This document shows, piece by piece, positions 1,308 to 30,160 of a stretch of DNA of 33,325 nucleotides. The first letter of the stretch is position 1. Each line of letters begins with the position of its first letter. Origin of the DNA: a virus (taxonomy: Duplodnaviria; Heunggongvirae; Uroviricota; Caudoviricetes). The DNA lies in IMG/VR virus record IMGVR_UViG_2619619132_000007; one strand, 5' to 3'. Below the pieces are notes generated by a model. That model saw nothing but the letters and a program-made list of their open reading frames with translations. It did no database searches and was not told where the DNA came from. Both the position numbers and the translations under genes were made by a program.

Positions 1308-1330
1308 CAACCCTTAAGTTAGCGCTTATG
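1308..1330. repeat. IS186 right terminal inverted repeat
   Basis: 23 bp whose reverse complement (cataagcgctaacttaagggttg) overlaps the window start sequence. Confidence 0.7.
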
Positions 1331-2664: not shown

Positions 2665-2724
2665 TCCTCACGCTCCATAAATGACAAAACCGCCCGCAGG
2701 CGGTTTCACATAAAACATTTTGCA

Positions 2725-4037: not shown

Positions 4038-4042
4038 GGGAT

Positions 4043-8459: not shown

Positions 8460-8474
8460 CGCTGACTCTCCGGA

Positions 8475-9215: not shown

Positions 9216-9222
9216 AGCGTCC

Positions 9223-10193: not shown

Positions 10194-10204
10194 ACATCCC
10201 CCTT

Positions 10205-10558: not shown

Positions 10559-10569
10559 AGCGCCTCCCG

Positions 10570-10965: not shown

Positions 10966-11006
10966 GGACTCCTCCACAGAGAGAAAATGGCCCCGAAGGG
11001 CCATGA

Positions 11007-12032
11007 TTACGCCAGTTGTACGGACACGAACGCATCAGGGTCAGCCAGCAGCATCAGCGGTGCTGACTGAATCATGGTGAACTCACGCGCCGGATCGCCG
11101 GTGGTCACCCAGTTTTTCGGGTAGCGGGCAGAGGCGTTAATACCTTCGCGCTGTGCGTCCGCATCCTGAATGCAGCCATAGGTGCGCAGACCGCGTGCCT
11201 GAGTGTTCCCCAGCACCATCGTGTTGTCCGGCAGGAAGTTCTTTTTGACGCCGTTTTCCACGTACTGTCCGGAATACACGACGATCGCCGTATCGCCATA
11301 CATCCCCTTATAGGACACCGCTTCGCCCAGATCTTTTACCGCTGTCTCCAGCTCGGAATGAGAGCCGCGACGGGTATCCAGCTTCTCCTTGACGGCTTTG
11401 AAGGAACGGAACAGCGCCCAGCCTTTCGGATCAAACACGATGATATTCACCACACCGCTGGCGTTCAGCGCGTAGGCTTCGATATCGTCGGTCGGGTCAT
11501 ACGTGGACTTGTCACGCTTGCTCCACTCCGTACCGCCGGACTGCGTGATGTTGTTCGCCACACTGCGGCCCATATCCACTTCAACCGGATCGAAGGCTTC
11601 ACCGGTCATGGTATATTTGCCCTTAAGCACGGCAGAAACGGCCTGCATCTCTTCGACCTGAGCAATGGCCAGCTCTTCGTCTCGCATGTTCTGCAGAATG
11701 ATGCGACGGCGGCGGTAAGCCGGGTCCGCCAGATTCTGTGGATCTTCATCCGGCAGGCGACGCAGGGTCATCTGCGGATTCACCTCATGCTTCGGCTTGA
11801 CATATCCCGGTGTAAATTCAGAGGTGGAGCCGCCACGGGAGCGGATAACCTCACCGGAAACAATCGGCGAAACGTACAGCGCCATGTTTACCAGTCCCGG
11901 AATTTGTGAGAGATAGACTTTCTCCGTGGTGAAGGGATAGCTCTCACGGAAAAAGAGACGCAGAAACAGCGGATCAAACTTAAATTTCTTCTCATTTGCC
12001 GCCAGCAGCTGGGCGGTTGTGTACATCGACAT
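11007..12032 (-). CDS. E: Major capsid protein E
   Basis: Lambda E start MSMYTTAQLLAANE... is codon 10 of the listed ORF; 341 aa; near-identical to lambda E as recalled. Confidence 0.92.
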   Translation of the reverse strand: MSMYTTAQLLAANEKKFKFDPLFLRLFFRESYPFTTEKVYLSQIPGLVNMALYVSPIVSGEVIRSRGGSTSEFTPGYVKPKHEVNPQMTLRRLPDEDPQNLADPAYRRRRIILQNMRDEELAIAQVEEMQAVSAVLKGKYTMTGEAFDPVEVDMGRSVANNITQSGGTEWSKRDKSTYDPTDDIEAYALNASGVVNIIVFDPKGWALFRSFKAVKEKLDTRRGSHSELETAVKDLGEAVSYKGMYGDTAIVVYSGQYVENGVKKNFLPDNTMVLGNTQARGLRTYGCIQDADAQREGINASARYPKNWVTTGDPAREFTMIQSAPLMLLADPDAFVSVQLA

Positions 12033-12087
12033 AAAAAAATCCCGTAAAAAAAGCCGCACAGGCGGCCTTTAGTGATGAAGGGTAAGG

Positions 12088-12420
12088 TTAAACGATGCTG
12101 ATTGCCGTTCCGGCAAACGCGGTCCGTTTTTTCGTCTCGTCGCTGGCAGCCTCCGGCCAGAGCACATCCTCATAACGGAACGTGCCGGACTTGTAGAACG
12201 TCAGCGTGGTGCTGGTCTGGTCAGCAGCAACCGCCAGAATGCCAACGGCAGCACCGTCGGTGGTGCCATCCCACACAACCAGCTTACGGGTGGAGGTGTC
12301 CAGCATCAGCGGGGTCATTGCAGGCGCTTTCGCACTCAATCCGCCGGGCGCGGTTGCCGTATGTGCCGGGTCACTGTTGCCCAGCGGCTGGTAATGGGTA
12401 AAGGTTTCTTTGCTCGTCAT
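12088..12420 (-). CDS. D: Capsid decoration protein D
   Basis: [27 protein letters not shown]...; 110 aa from the second Met of the listed ORF; matches lambda D. Confidence 0.9.
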
Positions 12421-12429
12421 AAACATCCC

Positions 12430-12825
12430 TTACACTGGTGTGTTCAGCAAATCGTTAACGGCATCAGATGCCGGGTTACCTGCAGCCAGCGGTGCCGGTG
12501 CCCCCTGCATCAGACGATCCAGCGCAGTGTCACTGCGCGCCTGTGCACTCTGTGGTGCAGCTGCCAGAATGCGGCGGGTCGTTTCCACGGTCATACCGGG
12601 GGTTTCGGCCAGCACGCGTGCCTGTTCTTCGCGTCCGTGAGCCTCCTCACAGTTGAGGATCCCCATAATGCGACTGTTTTCTGCCGCAACCGCTGCGGTG
12701 ATCTGCGCGTTCACGTCCGGCTGCGCCGCGCTGGCGTTCTCGCCCTCCGTCGCTTGCACCACGCCAGTAACGTCAGCCTGCGAAGCAGTGGCTGAAACAG
12801 TTGTTGATTGAGTCTCTTTGGTCAT
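12430..12825 (-). CDS. Nu3: Scaffolding protein Nu3, nested in frame in the 3' part of C (start position tentative)
   Basis: Internal Met MTKETQSTTVSATASQ... in the C frame; lambda Nu3 is known to be translated in frame inside C. The exact start is my inference. Confidence 0.45.
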   Translation of the reverse strand: MTKETQSTTVSATASQADVTGVVQATEGENASAAQPDVNAQITAAVAAENSRIMGILNCEEAHGREEQARVLAETPGMTVETTRRILAAAPQSAQARSDTALDRLMQGAPAPLAAGNPASDAVNDLLNTPV

Positions 12826-13729
12826 TCGCCCTCCTGAGAGACGGGATTTACGTGCATCCAGTGCATCACGCATGACGGTGATCGCATCGGTACTGTTAAC
12901 AAGTTCATCAGCCAGTCCGGCATCAATGGCCTCCTGACCGCTGTACACTGCAGCCTCGGTATCCAGCACAGCCTGCACGGACAGGCCGGTATATGCCGAC
13001 ACCTTCTGTGCAAACATCCGGCGGGTTGCATCCATCCGGGACTGCAGTGTTTCCCGGACATCATCCGGTAGATGGCTGTAGGGGTTGCCATCCACCTTAT
13101 GGCTGCCGCTGTAAATCAGCGTGATTTCCACGCCCTGTTTCTCCAGCGCAGCACCGTAATTACTGTGAGCCATCATGACGCCGATGGAGCCTGTCCGGGC
13201 GGTCTGCGTGACCAGACGTCGGGAGGCGGCGCTGGCAAGCAACTGACCTGCACTGCAGTTCATGTCGTTGGCCAGCGCCCATACCGGCTTTATGTCACGC
13301 ACACGGGCGATGATGTCAGCGCAGTCAAATGCCCCTGCCACCATCCCGCCTGGCGTATCCATATCGAGCAGAATGCCGTCCACCATCGGGTCGCTGGCAG
13401 CCTGTTGCAGACGGGCGATAATGCCGTTGTAACCGGTCATCCCCGAATACGGCTGCAGCGCCCGCGTCCGACTGACCAGCGTGCCGGACACCGGCAGCAC
13501 GGCGATGCCGTTCATGACCTGATAACTGCGGGCCTGTCGTGGTCCGTCATCATCAACGGATAACGCCAGCGCCGCGGGTGCCTCTCCGGCAGTCAGGCTG
13601 TCGCCGGATACCGCATCCGTCAGGCGGCTGATCCCAAGCTGGCCTGCAAGCGCACAAAAGAAAACCCGCGCATAGGCGGGTTCAAGCATCAGCGGCTCAT
13701 TAAAGGCCATACTGGCAATATGCGGGAGA

Positions 13730-13749
<20 letters not shown>
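12430..13749 (-). CDS. C: Capsid assembly protease C
   Basis: 439-codon frame equal to lambda C in length; starts at an in-frame GTG (plus 13747..13749 cac) within a longer ORF; overlaps the B 3' end by 20 nt as in lambda. Confidence 0.85.
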
Positions 13750-17430
<3,681 letters not shown>

Positions 17431-17456
<26 letters not shown>

Positions 17457-17976
17457 TCAGCAACCCCGGTATCAGTTCATCCAGCGCGGCTGCTTTGTTC
17501 ATGGCTTTGATGATATCCCGTTTCAGGAAATCAACATGTCGGTTTTCCAGTTCCGGAAAACGCCGCTGCACCGACAGGGGGATCCCGTCGAGAATACTGG
17601 CAATTTCACCTGCGATCCGCGACAGCACGAAAGTACAGAATGCGGTTTCCACCACTTCAGCGGAGTCTCTGGCATTTTTCAGCTCCTGTGCGTCGGCCTG
17701 CGCACGCGTAAGTCGATGGCGTTCGTACTCAATAGTCCCTGGCTGGAGATCTGTCTCGCTGGCCTGCCGCAGTTCTTCAACTTCCCGGCGCAGCTTTTCG
17801 TTCTCAATTTCAGCATCCCTTTCGGCATACCATTTTATGACGGCGGCAGAGTCATAAAGCACCTCATTACCCTTGCCACCGCCTCGCAGAACGGGCATTC
17901 CCTGTTCCTGCCAGTTCTGAATGGTACGGATACTCGCACCGAAAATGTCAGCCAGCTGCTTTTTGTTGACTTCCAT
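17431..17976 (-). CDS. Nu1: Terminase small subunit Nu1
   Basis: 181 aa MEVNKKQLADIFGASIRTIQNWQEQGMPVLRGGGKGNEVLYD...; matches lambda Nu1, winged-HTH N-terminus. Confidence 0.9.
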
Positions 17977-17994
17977 TGTTCATTCCACGGCCAA

Positions 17995-18153
17995 AAACAG
18001 AGAAAGGAAACGACAGAGGCCCAAAAGCTCGTTTTCAGCACCTGTCGTTTCCTTTCTTTTCAGGGGGTATTTTAAATAAAAACATTAAGTTACGACGAAG
18101 AAGAACGGAAACGCCTTAAACCGGAAAATTTTCATAAATAGCGAAAACCCGCG
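17995..18153 (-). promoter_or_regulatory. cosB region (terminase gpNu1 R-site repeats)
   Basis: Three cgtttcc-containing repeats near 18001..18016, 18041..18060 and 18098..18113 between the Nu1 start and cosN, as in lambda cosB. Confidence 0.6.
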
Positions 18154-18165
18154 AGGTCGCCGCCC
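18154..18165 (-). other. cosN cohesive-end site (12-nt overhang sequence)
   Basis: Plus strand aggtcgccgccc is the reverse complement of the lambda cohesive end GGGCGGCGACCT; flanking sequence matches the lambda left and right ends. Confidence 0.85.
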
Positions 18166-18364
18166 CGTAACCTGTCGGATCGCCGGAAAGGACCCGCAAA
18201 ATGATAATAATTATCATCTGCATGTCACAACGTGCATCTACGCCATCAAACCACGTCAAATAATCAATTATGACGCAGGTATCATATTAATTGATCTGCA
18301 TCAACTTAACGTAAAAACAACTTCAGACAATACAAATCAGCGACACTGAATACGGGGCAACCTC

Positions 18365-18598
18365 ATGTCAACGAAGAACAGAACCCGCAGAACAACAACC
18401 CGCAACATCCGCTTTCCTAACCAAATGATTGAACAAATTAACATCGCTCTTGAGCAAAAAGGGTCCGGGAATTTCTCAGCCTAGGTCATTGAAGCCTGCC
18501 GCCGGAGACTGTGCTCAGAAAAAAGAGTTTCTTCTGAAGCAAACAAAGAAAAGAGTGACATTACTGAATTGCTCAGAAAACAGGTCAGACCAGATTGA
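18365..18598 (+). pseudogene. Small ribbon-helix-helix-like ORF (YnfO-like, 77 codons) with an in-frame TAG at codon 40
   Basis: ATG at 18365 gives MSTKNRTRRTTTRNIRFPNQMIEQINIALEQKGSGNFSA, then TAG at 18482..18484, then 37 more in-frame codons (VIEACRRRL...RPD) to TGA. Absent from the ORF track because each piece is under 60 aa. Confidence 0.55.
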
Positions 18599-18640
18599 AG
18601 CAATTTAGATAATCGTGCAGACTACGCCCCCTCATATCAC

Positions 18641-19066
18641 ATGGAAGGTTTATCTATGGATCAGGTAGTCATTTTTAAACAAATATTTGATAAAGTTCGA
18701 AACGATTTAAACTATCAATGGTTTTATTCTGAGCTAAAACGTCACAATGTCTCACATTACATTTACTATTTAGCCACAGAGAATGTTCATATTGTATTAA
18801 AAAATGATAATACAGTGTTATTAAAGGGCCTAAAAAACATTGTGTCTGTCAAATTTTCAAAGGATAGGCATCTTATAGAAACGACCTCTAATAAGCTGAA
18901 ATCCAGAGAGATCACATTTCAGGAATACAGAAGAAACCTTGCTAAAGCAGGAGTTTTTCGGTGGGTTACAAATATCCACGAACAAAAAAGATATTACTAT
19001 ACCTTTGATAATTCATTACTATTTACTGAAAGCATCCAGAAAACTACACAGATCTTACCACGCTAA
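18641..19066 (+). CDS. ydfO: DUF1398-family prophage protein (YdfO/YbcV-like)
   Basis: 141-aa low-GC ORF; likely true start MDQVVIFKQ... at 18656; sits after cos as ydfO does in K-12 Qin. Confidence 0.55.
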
Positions 19067-19217
19067 ACCATAACGTCCGGCTTCTCTCACTCCTGAGCCG
19101 GACTGCATTGGTTTAATAAAAACCATCAACAATTGTGATTTAGATATTCGGAACCATTCAAATATAACAAAACCCCGTAAAAACGAGGTTTATGGATAAA
19201 TTTTATTATTGAATACA

Positions 19218-19394
19218 TCAGATTAAATTAATCTTGACATCATAGCTTTCAAGACCCGTCATTTTTTCCCGTGCGGTAAACTGAATACTGGTAACTTCTT
19301 TCCCGGTCTTTTTCTTAAGTTCAATAATTTTTTTTGTTATATATTCAGAAATATCTGCTTCTGCTTTTGTTTTTAAGTTTTCAATATTCATCAT
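19218..19394 (-). CDS. gnsB: GnsA/GnsB-family small protein
   Basis: My translation: MMNIENLKTKAEADISEYITKKIIELKKKTGKEVTSIQFTAREKMTGLESYDVKINLI (58 codons); below the ORF-track cut-off. Confidence 0.65.
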   Translation of the reverse strand: MMNIENLKTKAEADISEYITKKIIELKKKTGKEVTSIQFTAREKMTGLESYDVKINLI

Positions 19395-19562
19395 TTCCTC
19401 TTTTAGTCTGTTATGACTTTCCAGTTACACAGTAAGTCGATTATATGGTGCAAACGTGTAAAAGATAAGATGAAACATCGCAATAATCAACATACGATAG
19501 TCTAAATTTTACACAAACAGACAAAGAGAATTTTCCTGAATTATCAATGCAATAGCATCAAA

Positions 19563-19793
19563 TCAACTCAAGAGCCTTATTGCTGCTTCCAGAATTTCTT
19601 CTGAAGTAACATGTCGATCCGCGGCTACATAAATGACTTTATGATCTCCGGTCAGAGATGGAAACCCTGCGGCCATTACAGTAAGGTGTGTTTTTTCGCC
19701 ATTTGGATATTCACGCATGATGGTGTTAACTCCAGTCATCGCTGGCACTACCACTGCTGGTTCAGAGTTAAAAAAAACTATGATTTTTTTCAT
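19563..19793 (-). CDS. Hypothetical small prophage protein
   Basis: The listed ORF starts at a TTG; the first ATG gives MKKIIVFFNSEPAVVVPAMTGVN... (76 aa). Weak Shine-Dalgarno sequence. Confidence 0.35.
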   Translation of the reverse strand: MKKIIVFFNSEPAVVVPAMTGVNTIMREYPNGEKTHLTVMAAGFPSLTGDHKVIYVAADRHVTSEEILEAAIRLLS

Positions 19794-19835
19794 GATGTTA
19801 CCGTAGTATGTGAGTATCCATCGAATAGACACCAA

Positions 19836-19858
19836 GCAAAAAAGCTCCCGAAGGAGCC
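19836..19858 (-). terminator. Rho-independent terminator downstream of cspI
   Basis: Minus strand ggctcc-ttcg-ggagc hairpin followed by tttttt. Confidence 0.5.
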
Positions 19859-20064
19859 TTCATTTTCACTTTTTTAAATCCAACGACAGACGGCTGGCAT
19901 TTAAGTATTGTGAAATATTATCAAATGTAATCATCATTGATTTACAAAAGATACATTTTGCCCCGAAAGGATTCATGTCAGAAACATCAAAAGATGATGT
20001 TCTATACTGGGAACCATGACAACACGGGCATCTAAAGTGAATATGGTTTGTAATATTGTCTACC

Positions 20065-20277
20065 TCAAAGCGCCACTACATGAACAGCGGCAGGACCTTT
20101 AGGTCCGTTCTCAATACCAAATTCAACTTCCTGATTCTCAGTTAATGTTTTGAAATCGTTGCTCTGAATTGCTGAGAAATGGACAAACACATCTTTGCTG
20201 CCATCTTTCGGCGTGATGAAACCAAAACCTTTTTCAGGGTTAAACCATTTCACTAAACCAGTCATTTTGTTAGACAT
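20065..20277 (-). CDS. cspI: Cold-shock protein (CspA family)
   Basis: 70 aa [37 protein letters not shown]...; RNP1/RNP2 motifs; position matches Qin cspI. Confidence 0.8.
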
Positions 20278-20639
20278 AATTATTACCTTTTGAAGAAATT
20301 AGCCCTTGGGCAGAATGGTCCGAAAAAAAATATCAGAGAGAAAAACCAACAAGGAAATCTCAAGAGGTACAAATAATAAAATTATAACAATGACTGCTTC
20401 AGATAAATTTGTAACAAACCAGAACACCATTAACGCATGATTAACCACCCATAGCAAGGATTACTTTTGTAAAGAAAAACACAGCAATGAAAGAATAGCT
20501 TTATTTATTAATAAAACGTGTCATTCTGATTAAGACCTTTTATCTTACCCTTAAGATTTCAGGAATTTTGGCTCATGGAAGAGTCCTTTTTATTTAAATT
20601 TTACATTCCGCGATGTAAATGTTCCGATTTAATATTACC

Positions 20640-21663
<1,024 letters not shown>

Positions 21664-21667
<4 letters not shown>

Positions 21668-21975
21668 AGATATTTATGATGAGGACGCTCGTGCTTATTG
21701 GCAGGATTTTCAATCTTAAAGGAGTACTGATGCTGCAGATAAGACTCAACTTTTTCTGACAATTTTTCTGCTACTTCCAGGAAGACTTGCCGGACGCTCC
21801 TTCTGGCTGCTGCCTCATAAAACTCCAGCGCAGCTCCTTCAACACGGTCCATGGCGACATCCAGGTCAAAAATTTCACCGTCAAAGCGTTCTTTGTCCTG
21901 TAAGGCTACAGTTACCGTAACTTTATTCTCAAAATTACGGACTCCTTTCACAACCAGTTCATAGTCTTGAGTCAT
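21664..21975 (-). CDS. ydfR: Hypothetical protein between holin and endolysin (YdfR-like)
   Basis: 103-aa ORF translationally coupled to both neighbours. Confidence 0.55.
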
Positions 21976-21979
21976 TGGA

Positions 21980-22195
21980 TTACTCTCCTCTCGCAGCCTT
22001 ACGCCTGTCTTCTTTAATCTTGAAATAAAGATTTGTCAGATACGTCAGCAGGCCAAAAACCAGGCTACCCAGCACACCGATTGCAGCCCACTGTGACGGA
22101 GTTACTTTATCGAGTAACTGCAATGCCCAGAAACCAGCATTCCCCGCCGATGTGCCATAGGCAACACCTGTTGTTAACTTATCCATTGATTTCAT
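21980..22195 (-). CDS. essQ: Class II holin (S21 pinholin-like) with dual-start motif
   Basis: [71 protein letters not shown]; two TM segments; Met1/Met4 dual start typical of holin/antiholin pairs. Confidence 0.75.
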
Positions 22196-22414
22196 ATCCT
22201 CACCCCGATGTACACGGATGGTGCAATATGTTTGAAAAGATCGGAGTCTACGGGGTAGTTTTGACAGCACACGTTGTTCTCAACGGCGCTAAAAAAACAT
22301 ACACATTAAAAATGTGGGTAATTATTTTGAAAGAAAGTCATATATAAAATAATAATACGAGAAATGTTTTCATATTTAGTGTACTGTATACGGCCATTTA
22401 TACAGGAAAAGCCT

Positions 22415-22585
22415 ATGTCAGAACGTAAAAACTCAAAATCACGCCGTAATTATCTCGTTAAATGTTCCTGCCCAAACTGCACCCAAGAGTCAGAACACAG
22501 TTTTTCAAGAGTACAAAAAGGTGCCCTTTTGATCTGCCCTCATTGCAACAAAGTATTCCAGACAAATCTTAAAGCTGTAGCCTGA
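22415..22585 (+). CDS. Small zinc-ribbon protein (CxxC...CxxC)
   Basis: MSERKNSKSRRNYLVKCSCPNCTQESEHSFSRVQKGALLICPHCNKVFQTNLKAVA; good Shine-Dalgarno (aggaaaag) upstream of ATG at 22415. Confidence 0.45.
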   Translation: MSERKNSKSRRNYLVKCSCPNCTQESEHSFSRVQKGALLICPHCNKVFQTNLKAVA

Positions 22586-22642
22586 TTGATTTTATTAGTA
22601 ACAAGTATTTTTTATATTTTAATAATATATTTAAAGCAGATA

Positions 22643-22666
22643 ATAAAAAACCCGCCTGAGCGGGTT
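22643..22666 (-). terminator. Rho-independent terminator (cspB 3' region)
   Basis: aacccgc-ctga-gcgggtt hairpin with a T-run on the minus strand. Confidence 0.5.
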
Positions 22667-22948
22667 TGAGATTGTGGTGCTTTTTGTGGGAGTCATCCAC
22701 TTACGCACTTTGTTTTGCCATGCCAGCAGTTAGCTTCTGCTGTAAAACTATTCATGCAGCAAACCTGCACTTCACCACAATGGTTAGCATACTTTTCCTG
22801 ATTAAGATTTTGCCAAATATGCTAGCCATTGTTTCATGTATTGGACCTCCTTACTTTTTATTAAAGAGATCCAATATTCACTACTCTGTCCGTATCTCTA
22901 CTCAGGCATCAGCCTTCTTCGTTATCGTATACAGACGAGCGATGAATT

Positions 22949-23164
22949 TTAATCAGTAATGATGACATTTGCTGCTGCAGGACCTTTAGCACCACTCTCT
23001 ATAGAGAAGGTAACCTTTTGACCTTCAAATAAGGTTCGATAATTATCATTCTGAATCGCAGAAAAATGCACAAACACATCTTTACTACCATCAACAGGAG
23101 AAATAAAGCCGAAACCTTTATCAGCGTTAAACCATTTTACTAAACCAGTCATTTTATTTGACAT
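22949..23164 (-). CDS. cspB: Cold-shock protein (CspA family)
   Basis: 71 aa [51 protein letters not shown]... Confidence 0.8.
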
Positions 23165-23464
23165 TCTACATTCCTTAACTTGAGCCTTTCGGCATAAATG
23201 GTTTGCATAACAGAAACGACTTCGTACTTAATTGGAGAGACTCAAAGAAGGAATAAGTGAATAACACCTGAAATGAGAACTGCTTTAGTAAACTACTTCG
23301 TATATCGTCTGTTCTTCAAACCGACGCAATCATTAACGCATAGTTGAACATATGAAGCAATGTTTATTTTAGACATCCAGCCATCTTCAACCCCATCAAA
23401 AAACTATAGCTTTCTTCAGGAACGTGTGTATAGTGCGCCAAGTTATCAGTATTAAGGAATTTTT

Positions 23465-23677
23465 TTGTCCCGTAAAATGACAGGAATTGTCAAAACCTTT
23501 GACGGCAAAAGCGGCAAGGGTCTTATCACCCCATCCGATGGTCGTATCGATGTCCAGCTTCATGTTTCAGCGCTCAATCTCCGCGATGCAGAAGAAATTA
23601 CCACCGGATTACGCGTGGAATTTTGCCGGATAAATGGTCTGCGTGGCCCTTCAGCTGCCAATGTTTACCTTTCATGA
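23465..23677 (+). CDS. cspF: Cold-shock-like protein (CspF/CspH type)
   Basis: 70 aa [70 protein letters not shown]. Confidence 0.8.
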
Positions 23678-23731
23678 GCTATATTAAAGCTTTAATTTCA
23701 GGCCCCATCGGATCACACATGGAGAGTTTTT

Positions 23732-23821
23732 ATGAATAACCCCGTCTGTCTTGATGACTGGTTGATTGGCTTTAAAAGCTTATGCTGTACTTTGGCCGTA
23801 ATAGCTCTGCTAATAATATAA
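23732..23821 (+). CDS. Candidate 29-aa hydrophobic peptide
   Basis: ggagag Shine-Dalgarno 6 nt upstream of ATG; [29 protein letters not shown]; not in the ORF track (under 60 aa). Confidence 0.3.
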
Positions 23822-23971
23822 TAAGCAGACTCATTGTGTTTAGGGACATTGTACTGGAAGAAAACATTTTAAACATCAGGCAAATAACCAAGTCACCAGC
23901 TAAATAATAAGTTAACAGACATGAGTCCCGGGATGAGATTCAACATTACCATTGCCCCATTTAAAGCACAA

Positions 23972-23998
23972 AACCCGCTCATCAGCGGGTTTTCTACT
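23972..23998 (-). terminator. Stem-loop terminator; candidate tR' of the late leader, possibly bidirectional
   Basis: aacccgc-tcatca-gcgggtt hairpin flanked by T-rich runs on both strands; ~40-60 nt downstream of the candidate pR' start. Confidence 0.45.
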
Positions 23999-24038
23999 TT
24001 TTCTTAACGTCGGGTATACAAAGCCCATCGTTGAAAAA

Positions 24039-24067
24039 ATTTTATCCATATTTTTTGAAAAATGCAA
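24039..24067 (-). promoter_or_regulatory. Candidate late promoter pR' (sigma-70, TTGCAT-N17-TAAAAT) just downstream of Q
   Basis: Minus strand ttgcat, 17-bp spacer, taaaat; placed between the Q stop (24099) and the hairpin at 23972..23998, as expected for a Q-modified promoter. Confidence 0.5.
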
Positions 24068-24098
24068 ACATCATGTCGCCATCTTCAGCAAAAATCAT

Positions 24099-24851
24099 TT
24101 ATCTCGTCACCTTCCTCAATTGCGCTTCCGCGTATGCTTCTTCCTGCCAGCACTTTGTTACCAGTTTACCAATGACGTCCGCATACCCCTTATACCACTG
24201 ATAATCGGTCAGGTCTGGTACCAGCTTCTGGACATGACGTCGTGCCAGCGTGGTCGGTAAACGACTAAACCGGTTTCCATTACAACGCCCACAAATCTTA
24301 TATACCGGTACGCCATGAAACCGGGTTCTTTTTTCATCCAGAACAATCCCTTTACCCTTACACCCTCTGCACGCTGTGCTGGCTTCGCCCTTACCATGGC
24401 AATGCTGACATAGTTCCTTCACCCATTCTTCCTTGATTACAGATTCCCCGCGTCTGTAGTGTTTCACCACTTCGCGCAATACATTATAAAATCCCGTACC
24501 TGAACAATGCTCACAGCGAGCCTTACTTGCCGCAGACCTGGAGTAATCAGCAAAGGCAAAACTCACGAGGTAAGGAATAATCTGTAACCGGATTTCTTCA
24601 CTCAATTTGTTCAATGTCGGGTTATCCAGTGCCATCGCGTAATTTAGCAGGCCTTCAATCGCAAACTGAGGGTCCTGAACACCAACTTTTGCCAGAAATA
24701 AGGCCAACCCAAGTGGTGCTTTCGACTGCACCATCCCCTGCGCTGCCATTACATCCGTAATTGTTAAACAACCGGTGCCTGTCGCTGGAGCGTCATCGCT
24801 CAATTTTGGAGATTTTGGGGAGTAATATTTTGGTAAGGCTTCAAGGTTCAT
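24099..24851 (-). CDS. quuQ: Late-gene antiterminator Q (Cys-rich zinc-binding)
   Basis: MNLEALPKYYSPKSPK... 250 aa from the internal Met of the listed 260-aa ORF; CxxC clusters (CEHCSGTG, CQHCHGKG, CRGCKGKG, CGRC). Confidence 0.75.
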   Translation of the reverse strand: MNLEALPKYYSPKSPKLSDDAPATGTGCLTITDVMAAQGMVQSKAPLGLALFLAKVGVQDPQFAIEGLLNYAMALDNPTLNKLSEEIRLQIIPYLVSFAFADYSRSAASKARCEHCSGTGFYNVLREVVKHYRRGESVIKEEWVKELCQHCHGKGEASTACRGCKGKGIVLDEKRTRFHGVPVYKICGRCNGNRFSRLPTTLARRHVQKLVPDLTDYQWYKGYADVIGKLVTKCWQEEAYAEAQLRKVTR

Positions 24852-24864
24852 GCTCGTTCTCCAC

Positions 24865-25953
24865 TTACGCCAGTACGCCAATTGTCAGCGCGCGATCGAT
24901 AAAACGAAATATCAGCTCCAGTTGGGAGCCATACTTATCTTCAAATGCCACTGTATCCGTATGCAGCTCGTTGTGATGCTTTCTGCACAAAGGCAACACA
25001 AAGAGATCATGTGCTTTTGTTCCCATTCCGCCCTGCCCGTGACCAATCAGATGATGCGGATCGTCGGCTGGCATACCGCAGCAAGCACACGGCTGTGTCT
25101 TAACCCAACGTGTGTATTTCTCCTTAACCCAGCGGCGACGTTTAGGCAGCTTCATGAAAGATTCCGGAGACTCTGGATCAACGGTGATGCTTACCACCGT
25201 CTTTTCCTGTGGTGATTTTTGTTGCTGGTGGGCGTAAGGCAACGGTGCAAGATTTTTTGTGCGTTGTTTCAATATGCTGGTGGCGGTCTGCTCTCCCGGT
25301 ACGATGTCGCTTTCGCGGTACACCGAGCAGATTTTTTCCGCTGGTAATCCCAGCGAACGACGCGATACAGCCTCAGGTAGTGCATCCACCACCTGATTGC
25401 AGACCGCCCACCAGGATAATTCAGCCAAAGATAATTCCCGCTCCTGCGTACCGCTTATTGCGTGACGGATGACGTCAATCACCCATGCTGTCAGCTTTTG
25501 TTGAGCAAGCAGCTCCAGTGATTCCGATGTCTGGTCACGCAGTTGGTTGTCGCAGTGCCAGCACAACACCATTGCGCCGGTACCATAACGGTGAATGACT
25601 GTTTCAGTGTGATGGTAATCGCCATTAGGCCACTGGCAGGATGTAACATGACGTAATAGCCAGTCGGACAATGCGCCAACGCCGCCAGCAGCACGAATCA
25701 CCCGTTCGTTACTAAAAAACGGCAGCAATGTTTTGTCTTCCGCCAGCGGCTGGCGAACGGCAGGAACGACTCCGGATGGCAGATTACGCATGCTTTTTGG
25801 TTCCGGTTCCACCAGCACTCGAGGATTATGAAATATCTGTATGGATTCACGGCCCGGCTTAAGGACCACCAGCCCAAGCTCAGGCACCAGAACAGGTCTA
25901 AGTAATACCCGCACGTTACCTCCAGATCCGTTGCTGGAAAGTGCGGGACGCAC
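24865..25953 (-). CDS. ydfU: DUF968-type prophage protein with C-terminal HNH-like zinc-finger nuclease motif (YdfU-like)
   Basis: C-terminal CACCGMPADDPHHLIGHGQGG...CRKHHNELH motif. The listed ORF is 362 aa; the true start may be the in-frame GTG 13 codons in (25914), giving 349 aa. Confidence 0.6.
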   Translation of the reverse strand: MRPALSSNGSGGNVRVLLRPVLVPELGLVVLKPGRESIQIFHNPRVLVEPEPKSMRNLPSGVVPAVRQPLAEDKTLLPFFSNERVIRAAGGVGALSDWLLRHVTSCQWPNGDYHHTETVIHRYGTGAMVLCWHCDNQLRDQTSESLELLAQQKLTAWVIDVIRHAISGTQERELSLAELSWWAVCNQVVDALPEAVSRRSLGLPAEKICSVYRESDIVPGEQTATSILKQRTKNLAPLPYAHQQQKSPQEKTVVSITVDPESPESFMKLPKRRRWVKEKYTRWVKTQPCACCGMPADDPHHLIGHGQGGMGTKAHDLFVLPLCRKHHNELHTDTVAFEDKYGSQLELIFRFIDRALTIGVLA

Positions 25954-26194
25954 GTGGTGGGCGTTCGGAATAAGGCAGCCTGACAGAGATTATCCAGTGC
26001 CGATAGTCGAGACTGAGAGCTTTCTTAACCTCGAACCCGCGCCTGCGGTAAGAATGAATCAGCCATTCGGCCTGTTCTGCAGTGCATGGAGGGTGCTGGA
26101 ACCATTCAGACTTGAATGCGTGAGAATACCGCCCGTGCGTGCAGGCAAGAACGGGCGAATTATCAGAATTGTAATATTTTGCGTTGCGTGCCAT
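25916..26194 (-). CDS. Hypothetical small prophage protein
   Basis: 92-aa ORF immediately upstream of ydfU; no recognisable motifs. Confidence 0.4.
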   Translation of the reverse strand: MARNAKYYNSDNSPVLACTHGRYSHAFKSEWFQHPPCTAEQAEWLIHSYRRRGFEVKKALSLDYRHWIISVRLPYSERPPRASRTFQQRIWR

Positions 26195-26260
26195 CGGTTT
26201 TCTCCGGTGGCACGGTGTTACTCAGCGGGAGTTCAGCCCCGCGCAAGATTGTAGATGAGT

Positions 26261-26512
26261 TTATTCTCCTGAAAAAGCAGAAAAGCCAGCTTTTATTCCG
26301 ATCTCTTTCAATGCCTGTAATGAAGTGACAAACTCACCTTCGCGCAAGATAAATCCGTCCGTGACCCGAGCATCCACAAAATTAATTAACGCAGCCCCAT
26401 TCTTTCGCAAACACATAATGCGGTAATGGCTAACAAGATTTCCATTTTCAACGCACACAGCATAGAGGCCATCTTCACAAAAAATTTTACGCAGTTCTTC
26501 GATGTTCATCAT
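26261..26512 (-). CDS. Hypothetical small prophage protein (possibly the Rem equivalent)
   Basis: 83-aa ORF between the ydfU region and hokD, the position rem occupies in K-12 Qin; sequence identity not verified. Confidence 0.45.
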   Translation of the reverse strand: MMNIEELRKIFCEDGLYAVCVENGNLVSHYRIMCLRKNGAALINFVDARVTDGFILREGEFVTSLQALKEIGIKAGFSAFSGE

Positions 26513-26627
26513 CAGAATCCTTCCGGATAATTAGCTCTCCCCTTTAAGGGACCATCCCTCTTATCCCTGCGCGCTACTTAAGTATTTTTGATTCTATTCC
26601 GGCACCGTCCAGAACTTCAAACGCGTT

Positions 26628-26660
26628 GAAAATAAAAACAAAAACCCGCCGAAGCGGGTT
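26628..26660 (-). terminator. Rho-independent terminator downstream of hokD
   Basis: aacccgc-cgaa-gcgggtt hairpin with T-run (tgtttttattttc) on the minus strand. Confidence 0.55.
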
Positions 26661-26728
26661 AAGTGCGGGTGCGTTGAGGATGCCTGCCACATCAGAGGTG
26701 GCGAGGGATTTCTCCCCCGCCGGGTCTC

Positions 26729-26884
26729 TTACTCCTCAGGTTCGTAAGCTGTGAAGACAGCGACCTCCGTCTGGCCGGTTCGGATTCGTACCTCGCAGAG
26801 GTCTTTCCTCGTTACCAGTGCCGTCACTATGACGGTTAAACAGATGACGATCAGGGCGATTAACATCGCCTTTTGCTGCTTCAT
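26729..26884 (-). CDS. hokD: Hok-family type I toxin (small membrane peptide)
   Basis: My translation: MKQQKAMLIALIVICLTVIVTALVTRKDLCEVRIRTGQTEVAVFTAYEPEE (51 aa); missed by the ORF track (under 60 aa). An overlapping mok-type frame and antisense Sok RNA are expected but not mapped. Confidence 0.85.
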   Translation of the reverse strand: MKQQKAMLIALIVICLTVIVTALVTRKDLCEVRIRTGQTEVAVFTAYEPEE

Positions 26885-26955
26885 AGCCTGCTTCTCCTGT
26901 CAACGCAAAGCAGAAGTGTCACCTTCGGTGCGAAACAGAGATGTCATGCTTTGGT

Positions 26956-27243
26956 TCAGAGAATGCGTTTGACCGCCTCGCTATATACTTCCGAGCGTTC
27001 TCTTTTCCCAACAGAAATCACGAAAACGACAACTTTCTCGTCTATAACCTGGTATACAAGGCGATAGCCTGAAGACCGGAGCTTAATCTTGTAACAATCA
27101 GGCATACCACGGAGCTTGTTTGCTTCAATCCGGGGTGACTCAAGTACTTCAACCAGCTTCTTTTTCAACTGTTCACGTACCGTCGAGCCCAGCTTTCGCC
27201 ATTCCTTTAGTGCCCGCTCGTCAAAATCCAGAAAATACGCCAT
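26956..27243 (-). CDS. relE: RelE mRNA interferase toxin
   Basis: 95 aa MAYFLDFDERALKEWRKLGSTVREQLKKKLVEVLESPRIEANKLRGMPDCYKIKL... Confidence 0.9.
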   Translation of the reverse strand: MAYFLDFDERALKEWRKLGSTVREQLKKKLVEVLESPRIEANKLRGMPDCYKIKLRSSGYRLVYQVIDEKVVVFVISVGKRERSEVYSEAVKRIL

Positions 27244-27482
27244 CAGAGTTCATCCAGCGTCACACGTACTGGCTTAGGATTACGAAGCCGTTCTTTCACT
27301 ATCTCCACAAGTTCAGCATCTTCATCACTCAGGAGTGTCTGTTTGAACGGCAAGCGTTCATTGTCAGCGATATACTCGAGCATGAGACGAAGCGCTTCAG
27401 AAGGAGTTACACCCATTTTTTCAAGCGCGGCGTAAGAACGCGCTTTAAGTTCATCGTCAATACGCAGGTTAATGCTACCCAT
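27243..27482 (-). CDS. relB: RelB antitoxin (RHH)
   Basis: 79 aa MGSINLRIDDELKARSYAALEKMGVTPSEALRLMLEYIADNERLPFKQ...; stop overlaps the relE start. Confidence 0.9.
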   Translation of the reverse strand: MGSINLRIDDELKARSYAALEKMGVTPSEALRLMLEYIADNERLPFKQTLLSDEDAELVEIVKERLRNPKPVRVTLDEL

Positions 27483-27535
27483 GTCTTACACCTCTTGTAA
27501 TTACAAATGTCATTACAAGTATCGCACTACAACAT
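27483..27535 (-). promoter_or_regulatory. relBE promoter/operator region (palindromic relO-like repeats)
   Basis: ttgtaattacaaatgtcattacaag directly upstream of relB contains the palindrome ttgtaattacaa and the related half-site tgtcattacaag. Confidence 0.5.
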
Positions 27536-27812
27536 GCTTAGGGCAAGTCACGAAGGAAGTCAGAAAGTAGTCGTAAGAACGGTGATCACTGTCCGCTTTG
27601 TGCCAGGAGCAGCCATTGCTAAGTCCATCCTGTATTGTGCAGGTCAGCTCGTTTTTAAAGAGTCCGGCCATCATCTTACTGGTACAGACACCATATACTT
27701 TGTGACGGTCAGGCTACATATGCACAACTCAATTTATTCATCTATTTTTTGCTTTAGCATGTCAGTGTTGCTTTCTCGTCGGCGGGTGAGCGGTGACCTG
27801 ACCTGTCGATAA
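27507..27812 (+). CDS. ydfV: Hypothetical protein divergent from relB (YdfV-like)
   Basis: 101-aa ORF starting inside the relBE promoter region; no motifs; assigned by position only. Confidence 0.35.
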   Translation: MSLQVSHYNMLRASHEGSQKVVVRTVITVRFVPGAAIAKSILYCAGQLVFKESGHHLTGTDTIYFVTVRLHMHNSIYSSIFCFSMSVLLSRRRVSGDLTCR

Positions 27813-27964
27813 AGGAACGTAACACGTTTTATGCAACACCCGCATGCGGCAGAAAATTATTGCCGAACGTTTACCCCTGTCAACAAGCTTTACTTTCTGA
27901 GGCGCGCCAGCCCGCGAGGAAAACAATCTGAACATCAAACAATTAATGACACAAGAAATACGAT

Positions 27965-27991
27965 TAAAGATTTTTTTGTGCATGCCGATAG
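27965..27991 (+). promoter_or_regulatory. Sigma-28 (FliA) class 3 promoter of flxA
   Basis: taaag at 27965..27969, 15-bp spacer, gccgatag at 27984..27991; matches the TAAA-N15-GCCGATAA consensus; 24 bp upstream of the flxA ATG. Confidence 0.6.
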
Positions 27992-28014
27992 TGCTTTTTT
28001 AAAAGGAGAAATCT

Positions 28015-28347
28015 ATGTCTGTCACAATTCAGGGAAATACCTCAACCGTTATTTCAAACAACTCCGCCCCGGAAGGAACATCAGAAATAGCCAAAATCAC
28101 AAGACAAATTCAGGTGCTGACTGAAAAGCTTGGGAAAATCTCATCGGAAGAGGGGATGACGACACAGCAGAAAAAAGAAATGGCTGCATTGGTACAGAAG
28201 CAAATTGAAAGCCTCTGGGCTCAACTGGAGCAGTTGTTAAGGCAGCAGGCAGAGAAAAAGAATGAAGACGCGACAGTTCAGCCTGATAAAAAAGAAGAGA
28301 AAAAAGACGATACAAATACCGCTGGCACCATTGATATTTACGTCTAA
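28015..28347 (+). CDS. flxA: FliA-regulated protein FlxA
   Basis: 110 aa MSVTIQGNTSTVISNNSAPEGTSEIAKITRQIQVLTEKLGKI...; aaggag Shine-Dalgarno; sigma-28 promoter upstream. Confidence 0.85.
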   Translation: MSVTIQGNTSTVISNNSAPEGTSEIAKITRQIQVLTEKLGKISSEEGMTTQQKKEMAALVQKQIESLWAQLEQLLRQQAEKKNEDATVQPDKKEEKKDDTNTAGTIDIYV

Positions 28348-28361
28348 GTGACAGCCGTATT

Positions 28362-28385
28362 GTGGCCCTCATCGGGCCACTTTTC
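28362..28385 (+). terminator. Rho-independent terminator of flxA
   Basis: gtggccc-tcatc-gggccac hairpin followed by tttt. Confidence 0.7.
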
Positions 28386-28699
28386 GCCATCAGCCTTTTC
28401 TTTAAAGACATATTATCTTTGTATCATTTCTGATAGTTAACATTACAAGATATAAGTAATGGACGCACTCCCAATTAGTCTATTTAAATCGCCACGAGTT
28501 TAACTGACAACCCATGATCAATTATGAATTGCAACTATTTCTGTAGTCACTTTTGTGGGGACAGTCCACAAAACTGCCAACTTCCGCTTCTTGCTCTTAG
28601 CGGACATTAGCATAGGCTATTTACCATAACGCCTCATTACGCGCACCGCCCAGACTGACTCAGCGCGTTTCTGGCATATCCCCGGTAAAACAAGTAACA

Positions 28700-30160
28700 A
28701 ACCACCCGAAAATGAACACCAGAAACGCGACTTAAGAATCTACCCTATGAATGGATATGCACTCAACCGAATCGATCTTGGTTTCAATCTTTTTTATCGG
28801 GATCAGGCTTCTTTTTAGGTAACTTCGGGGGCTTAACTTGCTGATGACTTTGCGTTCGGCGCGTAAGCCAGGGATGGTCAGCTTTAGGTTTAACATAGTA
28901 TTTTGAGCGTAAATCAATACGGGCATTATCCACTCGTTCATGGACACTCTTTTCATCATCCAGTGGTATAGGCTCCGGGCCATCAACATACTTTTCCCAG
29001 CCCAGCGCTTTCCCGTCATACAGAACGTTAATTTCACCGTCAAAGTTCTCGCATACAGTAACAACCGAATGCCTAAGTCGATATCCCCGGCCCTCACTGC
29101 GTACCTGAAACGCACTGCTTTTGTACTGGAAAGTGAGATTTTTAGACAGAACGCGCTTCGCCTGTAGGCTGAAGATATAACCCAGTTCCTCTTCAGAATG
29201 GTGCACATCAAGATGAGCATTATCAGTAGTACGAGGCGACGTAGCGAACCGGTTGTTATAGGCTTCAATAAAGGTCGGCAACCATGCATTTGCTGTTTCA
29301 ATATCACTGATATTCTGAAGCCGCATTTCTTTGACCAGCCTGTCCTGTAGTGTCTGATTGGCGCGCTCTACCCGCCCTTTTGCCTGCGGGCTGTTGGCAT
29401 GGATTGGCTCGATGCCCAGTGTCTTTATCGCACGAGTGAACTGGGTCAGCTCACCTTCCCGCTCTGGGTTATTTACCCTGAATATACTGTGTCTATCAGA
29501 GTAGAGAGCGAGCGGTACGCCATGATCATTAAGGTAACCCCGGAGGGTTTCCATGTAAGCCCGGGTTGTTTCAGCAGGCACAAAACGCAACGCCATCAAC
29601 GCACTGGTGGCATCATCAATGAAAACGATCAGTGTACATCTGGGGCCTCGATTTTCAAACCAGTCATGAGGTGAGCCATCAATCTGGATCAGTTCACCGT
29701 AAGATGGTCGTCGCATGCGGCGTTGATATATACGGGCAATTTTACGACGGCGTTCACGCCATAACCCCTCTTCTATCATCCACTTTCTGAGAGTTTCAAC
29801 GGATAAAGATAAACCGTGTATCTCGCGCAATTTTTCGCACGCAAACGTAGGTCCAAAATCAGCGTAACGGCCTTTGAGGAGTGAAATTACTGTTGCTCTG
29901 AATTCAGTAGAAAAGGAATTATTAGGACGCTTTCCACGTCGGTGGGAAACCAGACCAGAAGGCCCTTCATTTCTATACCGTTGCACCAGACGTTTAACCT
30001 GCCGAATAGAAATGCCAATGCGTGCCGCAGCTTGTTCCTGAATAATCTGAAGTCGGTGGAGTTCCTTATGACTCATCATAACAGTCTCTTTGATCATGAA
30101 AAATCCCCCAGAGAATTGTCTGGGGACATTTTAGAATGGTTCAAAGGGGACATTACAGCT
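28700..30160 (-). mobile_element. Insertion sequence with rve-type DDE transposase (IS481/ISNCY-like); ends not resolved
   Basis: Single transposase gene replaces the region that follows flxA in K-12 Qin. Boundaries are approximate because I could not identify terminal inverted repeats by eye. Confidence 0.35.
28784..30097 (-). CDS. DDE transposase, integrase-core (rve) type with N-terminal HTH
   Basis: 437 aa; D (IQIDGSPHDW) ... D (LALYSDRHSIF) ... E (QAKGRVERANQTLQDRL) spacing typical of retroviral-integrase-like transposases; Lys-rich C-terminal tail. Confidence 0.8.
   Translation of the reverse strand: MIKETVMMSHKELHRLQIIQEQAAARIGISIRQVKRLVQRYRNEGPSGLVSHRRGKRPNNSFSTEFRATVISLLKGRYADFGPTFACEKLREIHGLSLSVETLRKWMIEEGLWRERRRKIARIYQRRMRRPSYGELIQIDGSPHDWFENRGPRCTLIVFIDDATSALMALRFVPAETTRAYMETLRGYLNDHGVPLALYSDRHSIFRVNNPEREGELTQFTRAIKTLGIEPIHANSPQAKGRVERANQTLQDRLVKEMRLQNISDIETANAWLPTFIEAYNNRFATSPRTTDNAHLDVHHSEEELGYIFSLQAKRVLSKNLTFQYKSSAFQVRSEGRGYRLRHSVVTVCENFDGEINVLYDGKALGWEKYVDGPEPIPLDDEKSVHERVDNARIDLRSKYYVKPKADHPWLTRRTQSHQQVKPPKLPKKKPDPDKKD

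Follow-up and report, generated by a model that had tools for sequence, protein, structure and literature searches.

Rem and an orf92–ydfU cassette encoding a predicted HNH protein upstream of the Q gene of a Qin-type prophage

Three open reading frames lie between the toxin-antitoxin genes and the late antiterminator gene on a stretch of Caudoviricetes DNA (IMG/VR record IMGVR_UViG_2619619132_000007; 33,325 nt, in the following called the window). A reading of the sequence alone had described them as a DUF968 protein with a C-terminal HNH-like motif, placed like the NinG/Rap functions of lambda, and two uncharacterised small ORFs without recognisable motifs. This raises the question of what the three genes encode and whether they form one functional unit.

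Gene order, context and rem

The locus was found to belong to a Qin-type lambdoid prophage of E. coli. All three ORFs, including the small ones of 92 and 83 aa, are present on the minus strand and agree with the RefSeq annotation of almost identical E. coli loci (99.9% identity). Neither frameshifts nor internal stops were found in ydfU, the 92-aa ORF (orf92) or rem, and for each of the three genes an own Shine-Dalgarno sequence could be read from the sequence. The flanks are likewise those named in the sequence-only reading. The annotated genes hokD, relE and relB (26,729–27,482, minus strand) are located upstream, and ydfT/quuQ, a Q-type late antiterminator gene (24,099–24,851, minus strand; annotation and Pfam Antiterm, E = 4e-54), directly follows ydfU.

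After hokD, an intrinsic terminator-like hairpin (AACCCGC-TTCG-GCGGGTT with a T-run; 26,633–26,660, minus strand) parts the toxin-antitoxin genes from rem. A sigma-70-like promoter candidate (TTGAAG, 18 nt, TAGAAT; 26,591–26,620, minus strand) was identified upstream of rem in a consensus scan, for which the evidence is weak because the scan gave five sites compared to 3.4 expected. In other prophages the toxin-antitoxin slot holds parDE or hok. A functional tie between the cassette and the neighbouring toxin-antitoxin modules was rejected since the type of these modules differs or they are missing between loci, which favours a variable 'moron' slot.

The 83-aa ORF is rem (26,261–26,512, minus strand; annotated as 'protein Rem', PHROG 340), and its product is identical to Rem of MG1655. 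Rem was experimentally shown in 2023 to be an antirepressor of the Qin repressor DicA in K-12, where dicBp was derepressed 165-fold (PMC10448788). The description as uncharacterised therefore holds for the 92-aa ORF and not for rem. Similarly, the small ORFs were without motifs in the Pfam-A copy used, but a Pfam family 'Rem' (PF27490) was found on a Rem homologue and both proteins belong to PHROG families. A match of Rem to SocB was judged to be due to chance (14.9 bits compared to a cut-off of 210 bits). No LexA box was found nearby upstream of rem, and LexA control was rejected for this reason. Rem is comparable in kind to the Gifsy-type antirepressors GfoA and FsoA, which differ from it in this respect. 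In the window, the rem product would inactivate a DicA-type prophage repressor.

Taken together, this is a standard nin/Q-proximal segment of the lambdoid type; most of it is ordinary, and the larger part was known already. Judging from the sequence and from analogy with characterised relatives, we consider it reasonably probable that it represents the distal end of the delayed-early ('nin') operon, whose genes lie on the minus strand and run in the direction of Q, and that it holds two functionally separate units, namely the rem antirepressor gene and a coupled orf92–ydfU cassette encoding an HNH nuclease, YdfU.

The two domains of YdfU

The gene ydfU (24,865–25,914, minus strand) encodes a DUF968 protein of 349 aa with a GTG start at 25,914 and a TAA stop at 24,867–24,865, as annotated by RefSeq in the 99.9% identical loci. 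In the mechanical ORF list the frame begins at an upstream GTG (25,953) and comprises 362 aa, compared to 349 aa for the annotated product. The DUF968 model (PF06147) was matched over its complete length (positions 1–171 of 171) with 255.7 bits (gathering threshold 27.8 bits; E = 3e-76), and PHROG 96, 'HNH endonuclease', matches YdfU at full length (E = 2e-169). The dN/dS ratio of ydfU was determined to be 0.10–0.30, which indicates purifying selection.

Homologues of YdfU were found in PhiR42_1, SfV, mEp390, Stx phages and phages of Klebsiella and Vibrio. At every lambdoid E. coli or Shigella locus examined, the ydfU homologue is located immediately before Q or RusA-Q. Many truncated or chimeric YdfU fragments are present in the databases; apparent 'fusions' to other domains were identified as chimeras in which YdfU adjoins a fragment of a tail, portal or capsid protein, i.e. 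deletion scars, and rejected as real architectures. A strong Rho-dependent terminator has been described upstream of ydfU (PMC9160355).

The C-terminal domain (residues 243–349; 24,868–25,188, minus strand) combines a CxxC...CxxH zinc knuckle with a DPHH...HHNELH catalytic motif. The Cys/His motif quoted in the sequence-only reading corresponds to QPCACCGMPADDPHHLIGHGQGGMGTKAHDLFVLPLCRKHHNELH, residues 274–318 of YdfU. Its core from C276 to H318 (24,961–25,089, minus strand) was delimited by column conservation in 31 diverse homologues and by a one-to-one match to Gp16 of the Staphylococcus phage PhiNM1. The predicted zinc ligands are C276, C279, C310 and H313, and the predicted catalytic or metal-binding residues are H287/H288, D303, H314 and H318. 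The catalytic and zinc columns are kept in 25 to 31 of the 31 homologues; H288, H314 and H318 are each conserved in 28 of them, and three lack the catalytic histidines. A beta-hairpin followed by an alpha-helix, as in the metal finger fold, is present in YdfU (AF2 model, pLDDT 86.7), where strand 1 ends in a general-base histidine and the helix provides a metal-ligand position (His/Asn). In the alignment, H288 corresponds to H157 of Gp16, and H314 and H318 correspond to H185 and H189.

Profile comparison with hhalign gave probabilities of 85% for YbcO and 80% for Ref. The HNHc_6 model (PF16784) scored 26.1 bits on full-length YdfU, slightly below the threshold of 26.6, and 27.6 bits on the C-terminal half alone; only model positions 123–184 of 204 are covered. 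The model of the Ref family (RecA_dep_nuc, PF16786) remained below its gathering threshold (17.6 compared to 26.9 bits). No significant match was obtained in PDB sequence searches with each protein and the YdfU family profile, and NCBIfam and PADLOC searches gave no meaningful matches. A Foldseek search of BFVD with YdfU retrieved only small stand-alone DUF968/Ref-like HNH proteins; the N-terminal domain had no match there, and NinG was absent. The sequence data thus support the Cys/His motif as a true domain of the HNH/His-Me finger type, whose predicted active site seems to be intact. The assignment is not new, since DUF968, with YdfU named, was placed in group 7 of a His-Me finger survey published in 2017 (PMC5714182).

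The N-terminal domain (residues 1–160; 25,435–25,914, minus strand) is family-specific, has no Pfam match and was modelled with a pLDDT of about 84–95. It contains a putative second, structural zinc site formed by C93, H101, C118 and C121 (25,546–25,638, minus strand; motif LCWH[HC]DN) on a beta-hairpin-helix, with strands at 105–110 and 113–118 and a helix at 119–125 in the AF2 model. C93 and C118 are invariant in the 31 homologues. Positions 101 and 121 are C or H in 30 to 31 of these; YdfU has H at 101 and C at 121, whereas C and H, respectively, are found in most homologues. W119 and D122 are conserved in 30 and 29 of the 31 sequences. Strand 1 does not end in a conserved catalytic histidine, position 108 being variable in the 31 homologues. 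The motif order is the same as in the HNH domain, but at the sequence level an origin of the N-terminal domain as a degenerate HNH duplicate was not supported (hhalign E 0.09, probability <1%). Its role may be the binding of DNA or of a partner.

YdfU would accordingly be a two-domain zinc protein, in which the N-terminal domain is joined by a helical, partly disordered linker to a beta-beta-alpha-metal (HNH) nuclease domain of the DUF968/HNHc_6/Ref type. It may nick or cut DNA during lytic development, with H288 acting as general base and the metal bound by H314 and H318. Judging from Ref and Gp16, the only relatives that have been characterised, its substrates could be host DNA or intermediates of recombination or replication, whereby YdfU would help phage replication and recombination. 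It would not be essential to the phage.

Alternatively, YdfU might be stabilised by zinc but not catalytic and bind DNA or protein as an accessory of late-gene activation or replication, its HNH fold being only a binding module. This would fit to the loss of the catalytic histidines in P1 PdcB and in three of the 31 homologues, which keep the zinc motif of the N-terminal domain and the architecture, and the core function of the family may therefore not require catalysis. The ydfU-type gene also adjoins a late regulator gene (Q in lambdoid phages, lpa in P1), and C93 and C118 are among the most strictly conserved residues of YdfU. However, YdfU and 28 of the 31 homologues keep all residues for catalysis and zinc binding. 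The conservation of H288, H314 and H318 is hard to explain without catalysis, and the YdfU residues match those whose mutation abolishes the activity of Gp16 (PMC12817073). A non-catalytic YdfU is thus regarded as unlikely.

orf92, its coupling to ydfU and the function of the cassette

The 92-aa ORF (WP_012304870; 25,916–26,194, minus strand) was called by PGAP, belongs to PHROG 1212 (E = 2e-35) and encodes a basic protein with a pI of 10.2. The MG1655 reference annotation (NC_000913.3) lacks it, and it is the only modestly new item of the locus. Its dN/dS ratio of 0.23–0.38 indicates purifying selection; codons 27–92 are constrained and codons 1–26 are neutral. The C-terminal 20 codons show a pN of 0.013 and a pS of 0.21, and encode an invariant, Arg/Pro-rich and strongly basic tail (pI 11.8). 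A match of orf92 to the CAS-II region of RNase T2 (PDB search, E 0.099) was judged to be due to chance, since the first catalytic histidine is not kept.

Six further prophage loci were examined, and in each of them orf92 directly precedes a DUF968 gene; the pair is kept while both flanks vary. In total, orf92 was found in 8,527 places in 4,529 of 5,426 E. coli genomes (~83%), which nearly equals the 9,085 places of the 5′ part of ydfU in the same 5,426 complete genomes. No orf92 homologue was found near the YdfU homologues of SfV, mEp390, P1 and the Vibrio phage Cla.

At the junction GGAGG-TAA-C-GTG (25,912–25,923, minus strand), the Shine-Dalgarno sequence of ydfU is located inside the last orf92 codons; the orf92 stop comes next, and a single base separates it from the GTG start of ydfU. 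The 16-nt sequence ATCTGGAGGTAACGTG is identical in the window and the six homologous loci, and nearby codons vary synonymously. From this arrangement, translational coupling of orf92 and ydfU is predicted. A programmed +1 frameshift at AGG-TAA-C leading to an Orf92-YdfU fusion was judged unlikely because a GGAGG 4 nt before GTG is typical of reinitiation and +1 re-pairing of the AGG tRNA would be poor. The sole fusion protein of this kind in the databases (438 aa) arises from a small deletion.

Orf92 and YdfU would be translated from one mRNA, Orf92 shortly before YdfU, and in this subclade of Escherichia Orf92 probably serves YdfU as a stoichiometric partner or as a regulator. The prophage repressor, together with Rho-dependent termination ahead of ydfU, may silence the cassette in lysogens of the K-12 kind. 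A more speculative extension, to which we assign a low probability, describes orf92–ydfU as a two-component nuclease module. In this module the Orf92 tail would gate or target a Ref/Gp16-like, RecA-linked HNH nickase, and derepression, e.g. via Rem, would damage or remodel host DNA.

The invariant junction in the window and the six loci, the order of a small upstream gene followed after a 1-nt gap by a larger one, and the conservation of the pair between variable flanks resemble antitoxin-toxin operons. YdfU could then be a nuclease toxic to the host, rival phages or mobile elements, which is neutralised or gated by Orf92 with its basic tail, and the relatives Gp16 and Ref are indeed growth-inhibitory or DNA-damaging in their own hosts (PMC12817073, PMC4713147). 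In such a pair, however, the effector should never occur without its protector, whereas many YdfU homologues occur without orf92. Furthermore, PADLOC gave no match and the basic Orf92 does not resemble the acidic mimics of DNA, so that a toxin/immunity-like pair appears quite doubtful compared to the coupled nuclease cassette proposed here.

The sequence-only reading had placed YdfU in the position of NinG/Rap, and a functional equivalent, i.e. a Holliday-junction or D-loop resolvase of the phage, would follow from it. The positional part of this claim was confirmed. Lambda NinG/Rap, a structure-specific nuclease, is encoded at the same map position near Q, and HNH-type Cys/His motifs are found in NinG/Rap as well as in YdfU (PMC5714182). 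However, no match to Pfam NinG (PF05766) was obtained for YdfU, and hhalign with NinG gave a probability of 6% over 18 columns. In addition, the dedicated resolvase RusA is encoded beside YdfU homologues in SfV, mEp390 and many E. coli prophages. The analogy to NinG/Rap is therefore positional only and YdfU is not an alternative junction resolvase, which makes functional equivalence very unlikely.

That the genes are decaying remnants without current function, or that orf92 is not a real gene, is highly improbable: although Qin is defective in K-12, ydfU is silenced by Rho, fragments of YdfU occur in databases and orf92 lies outside the curated MG1655 annotation, the ORFs are all intact, dN/dS is well below 1 for ydfU and orf92, the same cassette is found in inducible and functional phages, and the prophage carried by the window is far more complete than Qin of K-12.

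As submitted, the locus matters little, since the HNH assignment of YdfU and the function of Rem were published in 2017 and 2023, respectively. YdfU and Rem are still included in the K-12 y-ome list of 2024, and YdfU, with about 9,000 copies in 5,426 complete genomes, is among the most widespread uncharacterised E. coli prophage proteins. Its catalytic core matches a newly characterised RecA-dependent phage nickase residue for residue, which provides a concrete and cheap hypothesis. As orf92 is clearly under selection, naming it and testing it as a partner of YdfU would be worthwhile. If the two-component module were true, it could, like P1 Ref, affect the outcome of the SOS response and the lethality of antibiotics.

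Comparison with known systems

The P1 protein PdcB is a full-length homologue with 26% identity over 91% of YdfU (DUF968, E = 4e-50). In P1 its gene stands between the small ORF pdcA, which is preceded by the phd-doc toxin-antitoxin module, and the late activator gene lpa, which comes directly after it. The two systems differ in that pdcA is unrelated to orf92 and that the HNH active site of PdcB is degenerate and without the HH motif. PdcB is dispensable for lytic growth of P1.

YbcO (PDB 3g27; DUF1364) shares group 7 of the His-Me finger proteins with YdfU (DUF968). It is a stand-alone HNH protein of 96 aa, whereas YdfU adds the 160-aa putative zinc-containing N-terminal domain and the helical linker, which is covered by the Pfam model only in part.

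P1 encodes, separately from PdcB, the RecA-filament-dependent HNH endonuclease Ref (PDB 3plw), which has a disordered basic N-terminus instead of the folded N-terminal domain of YdfU. RecA-dependent cleavage was described for both Ref and Gp16 (PMC3973344, PMC12817073). In the HNHc_6 protein Gp16, a NinB/Orf-like N-terminal domain is fused to the HNH domain, which is not the case in YdfU. Since YdfU has neither this NinB-like domain nor the basic N-terminus of Ref, a RecA dependence of YdfU would be an analogy only.

Gp16 of PhiNM1, a RecA-dependent nickase, also exceeds the DUF968 threshold and, like YdfU, is the product of an early non-structural phage gene in the vicinity of RusA. The HNH core of Gp16 is 41% identical to that of YdfU over 59 aa, with an identical pattern CxxC...H...CRxHHNExH. 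All six mutagenised residues of Gp16 (C148, C181, H184, H157, H185 and H189), whose mutation abolishes its activity, are kept in YdfU (PMC12817073).

Gene order and integrity of the ydfU locus

The window contains an E. coli Qin-type lambdoid prophage. Many complete genomes carry annotated loci with 99.9% identity to positions 24000-27600. The minus-strand gene order was found to be relB, relE and hokD (26729-27482), rem (26261-26512; 83 aa), the gene of a 92-aa hypothetical protein (orf92; 25916-26194), ydfU (24865-25914) and the Q-type antiterminator gene ydfT/quuQ (24099-24851). The three ORFs placed between the toxin-antitoxin genes and Q by the sequence-only reading agree exactly with RefSeq features of near-identical loci, with zero frameshifts and zero internal stops. 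The annotated ydfU start is the GTG at 25914, which is preceded by a Shine-Dalgarno sequence and yields 349 aa; a mechanical ORF list gave 362 aa from a GTG further upstream.

The window differs from MG1655 in its more complete prophage, which includes head and tail genes of the lambda type. MG1655 Qin is co-linear with the window over 17448-28968 only, and the window prophage (1330-17400 and the whole window) shows 98.9% identity to a DH5alpha locus and is not K-12 Qin. The window YdfU carries the substitutions N140K, L209Q and A344T relative to K-12, whereas Rem, the 92-aa protein and Q show no differences.

Domains and predicted active site of YdfU

Residues 160-346 of YdfU match Pfam DUF968 (E 3e-76), and PHROG 96 'HNH endonuclease' covers the full-length protein. 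Two further Pfam models matched weakly, HNHc_6 with 26.1 bits (cut-off 26.6) and RecA_dep_nuc, the family of Ref, with 17.6 bits (cut-off 26.9). Profile comparison identified YbcO (85%) and Ref (80%). The structure, predicted from 31 aligned full-length homologues (25-80% identity to YdfU), had a mean pLDDT of 86.7, and the matches among viral models in Foldseek were small stand-alone DUF968 and Ref-like proteins. The HNH fold first suggested by a Cys/His motif is borne out. YdfU is an HNH protein, as was already in the literature: the HNH motif of DUF968 proteins was noted by Curtis et al. (2014, PMC4118853), and Jablonska et al. (2017, PMC5714182) assigned DUF968 and DUF1364/YbcO to His-Me finger group 7, mentioning Qin YdfU by name and suggesting a function in recombination. 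No experimental characterization of YdfU was found in the literature, and the y-ome list of 2024 still includes it.

Gp16 of the Staphylococcus phage PhiNM1 was shown in 2026 to be a RecA-stimulated nickase that inhibits host replication and favours phage propagation (PMC12817073). HNHc_6 has Gp16 as its archetype, and the protein scores above the DUF968 threshold as well; its HNH core shares 41% identity with YdfU over 59 residues (E 4e-11). The residues mutated in Gp16 for zinc binding (C148, C181, H184) and catalysis (H157, H185, H189; PMC12817073) correspond to C279, C310, H313 and H288, H314, H318 of YdfU, respectively. These six columns are kept in 25-31 of 31 diverse homologues, among which C276 and D303 are invariant. 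Ref and YdfU have the motifs LPC..C, HH(I/L)(A/I)G and LPLCR(W/K)HH in common. Because of the residue match to Gp16 and Ref and the column conservation, the active site of the window YdfU looks intact. We infer nuclease activity and, possibly, a dependence on RecA.

Residues 1-160 matched no Pfam family and are a confident part of the predicted model. Four ligand residues (C93, C/H101, C118, H/C121) are strictly conserved and lie within a hairpin-helix that bears the sequence LCWH[HC]DN; we read them as a putative second, structural zinc site. Strand 1 of this module does not end in a conserved histidine, position 108 being variable, so a catalytic function is improbable. As to a possible degenerate His-Me finger in the N-domain, the motif order matches between the N- and C-domains in hhalign, at a non-significant E of 0.09.

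A few assemblies contain YdfU-Q read-through fusions (P0003, P0004, P0006; 607 aa), and one Orf92-YdfU fusion (P0002; 438 aa) was caused by a small deletion; both types are probably due to indels or sequencing errors. Long YdfU 'fusion' proteins with tail, portal and capsid fragments in the representative library are chimeras and were rejected as real architectures. In P0125, P0145, P0174, P0189, P0191 and P0255, the YdfU N-terminus is joined to J/tail-fibre/portal/capsid fragments at varied breakpoints, and such ORFs are deletion scars of decaying prophages with ends inside ydfU.

Rem and Orf92

Both small ORFs had been regarded as uncharacterized. This holds for the 92-aa ORF, whereas the 83-aa ORF is Rem, which was found by iterative searches starting from Gifsy antirepressors, derepresses dicBp 165-fold and causes filamentation dependent on DicB and DicF; its natural inducing signal is not SOS (Ragunathan et al., 2023, PMC10448788). 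In keeping with this, no LexA box was found upstream of rem, in contrast to the Gifsy antirepressor genes. A terminator-like hairpin with a T-run after hokD is followed by a weak sigma-70-like −35/−10 pair upstream of rem (26591-26660, minus strand). In K-12, a strong Rho-dependent terminator was reported upstream of ydfU (PMC9160355). The minus-strand transcript shows a modest C-over-G bias around the rem-orf92 intergenic region (26140-26260), which might, tentatively, be this terminator.

The orf92 gene is not annotated in the curated MG1655 reference (NC_000913.3); in other strains PGAP annotates its product as WP_012304870. The ATG of orf92 is preceded, at a distance of 7 nt, by a separate Shine-Dalgarno sequence (GGAG), and the last orf92 codons contain GGAGG, followed by TAA, one base and the ydfU GTG. 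The 16-nt junction stretch is identical in the window and six homologous loci, with synonymous differences in neighbouring codons. The pairwise dN/dS of 0.23-0.38 indicates purifying selection: codons 1-26 are neutral (pN 0.26, pS 0.28), codons 27-72 constrained (pN 0.13, pS 0.53), and the Arg/Pro-rich tail (codons 73-92) nearly invariant in protein sequence (pN 0.013, pS 0.21). An antisense 137-aa ORF lies opposite orf92/ydfU (window 25841-26254, plus strand; 4607-5020 in the PhiR42_1 locus L004). It is annotated as a CDS in PhiR42_1, where orf92 is left out; since selection acts on the orf92 frame, this CDS is probably a mis-annotation. A weak resemblance of Orf92 residues 11-61 to the CAS-II active-site region of a plant RNase T2 (1dix; E 0.099) is probably due to chance, because Orf92 does not keep the first of the catalytic histidines.

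The orf92-ydfU pair is retained between differing flanks in six other prophage loci, with rem, hok, parDE or other genes upstream and RusA and four different Q families downstream. The upstream toxin-antitoxin modules vary by prophage (relBE and hokD, parDE or hok; window 26729-27482, and prophage loci L009 4303-4865, L015 3624-3836, L016 3678-3833 and L018 3242-3454), which points to a variable 'moron' site and not to a functional link. In complete E. coli genomes, 8527 copies of orf92 were found in 4529 of 5426 (~83%), and 9085 copies of the ydfU 5' part in 4540. Relatives of orf92 were found in Escherichia and Shigella only, and none is present near the YdfU homologues of SfV, mEp390, P1 or Vibrio. 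On this evidence orf92 is a real gene, and its product probably acts as a subclade-specific partner of YdfU.

Comparison with other phages

Homologues of YdfU were found in functional phages, namely PhiR42_1 (99%), SfV (orf45), mEp390 (gp45) and Stx, Klebsiella and Vibrio phages. In the lambdoid E. coli/Shigella loci examined, they are located directly upstream of Q or of RusA-Q. Their co-occurrence with RusA means that they are not the alternative junction resolvase, and the profile comparison with lambda NinG was negligible (6% probability, 18 columns). The observation of the sequence-only reading is confirmed and its interpretation partly supported, the equivalence to NinG/Rap not being upheld. 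Almost all of these findings had been published or annotated before. Modestly new are the correspondence of YdfU to Gp16 and Ref at the level of single residues, the second zinc site (putative), the degeneracy of the PdcB lineage, and the conserved coupling of ydfU to orf92, which the MG1655 reference lacks.

PdcB of phage P1 (locus L007, 3905-4948) is a full-length YdfU homologue that is dispensable for lytic growth. The P1 order of phd-doc, pdcA, pdcB and, directly following, the late activator gene lpa parallels Qin in its layout of toxin-antitoxin module, small ORF, YdfU-like gene and late activator. Unlike the window YdfU, PdcB has lost the HNH histidines and with them its HH motif, and 3 of 31 homologues are similarly degenerate, which keeps a non-catalytic role alive for part of the family.
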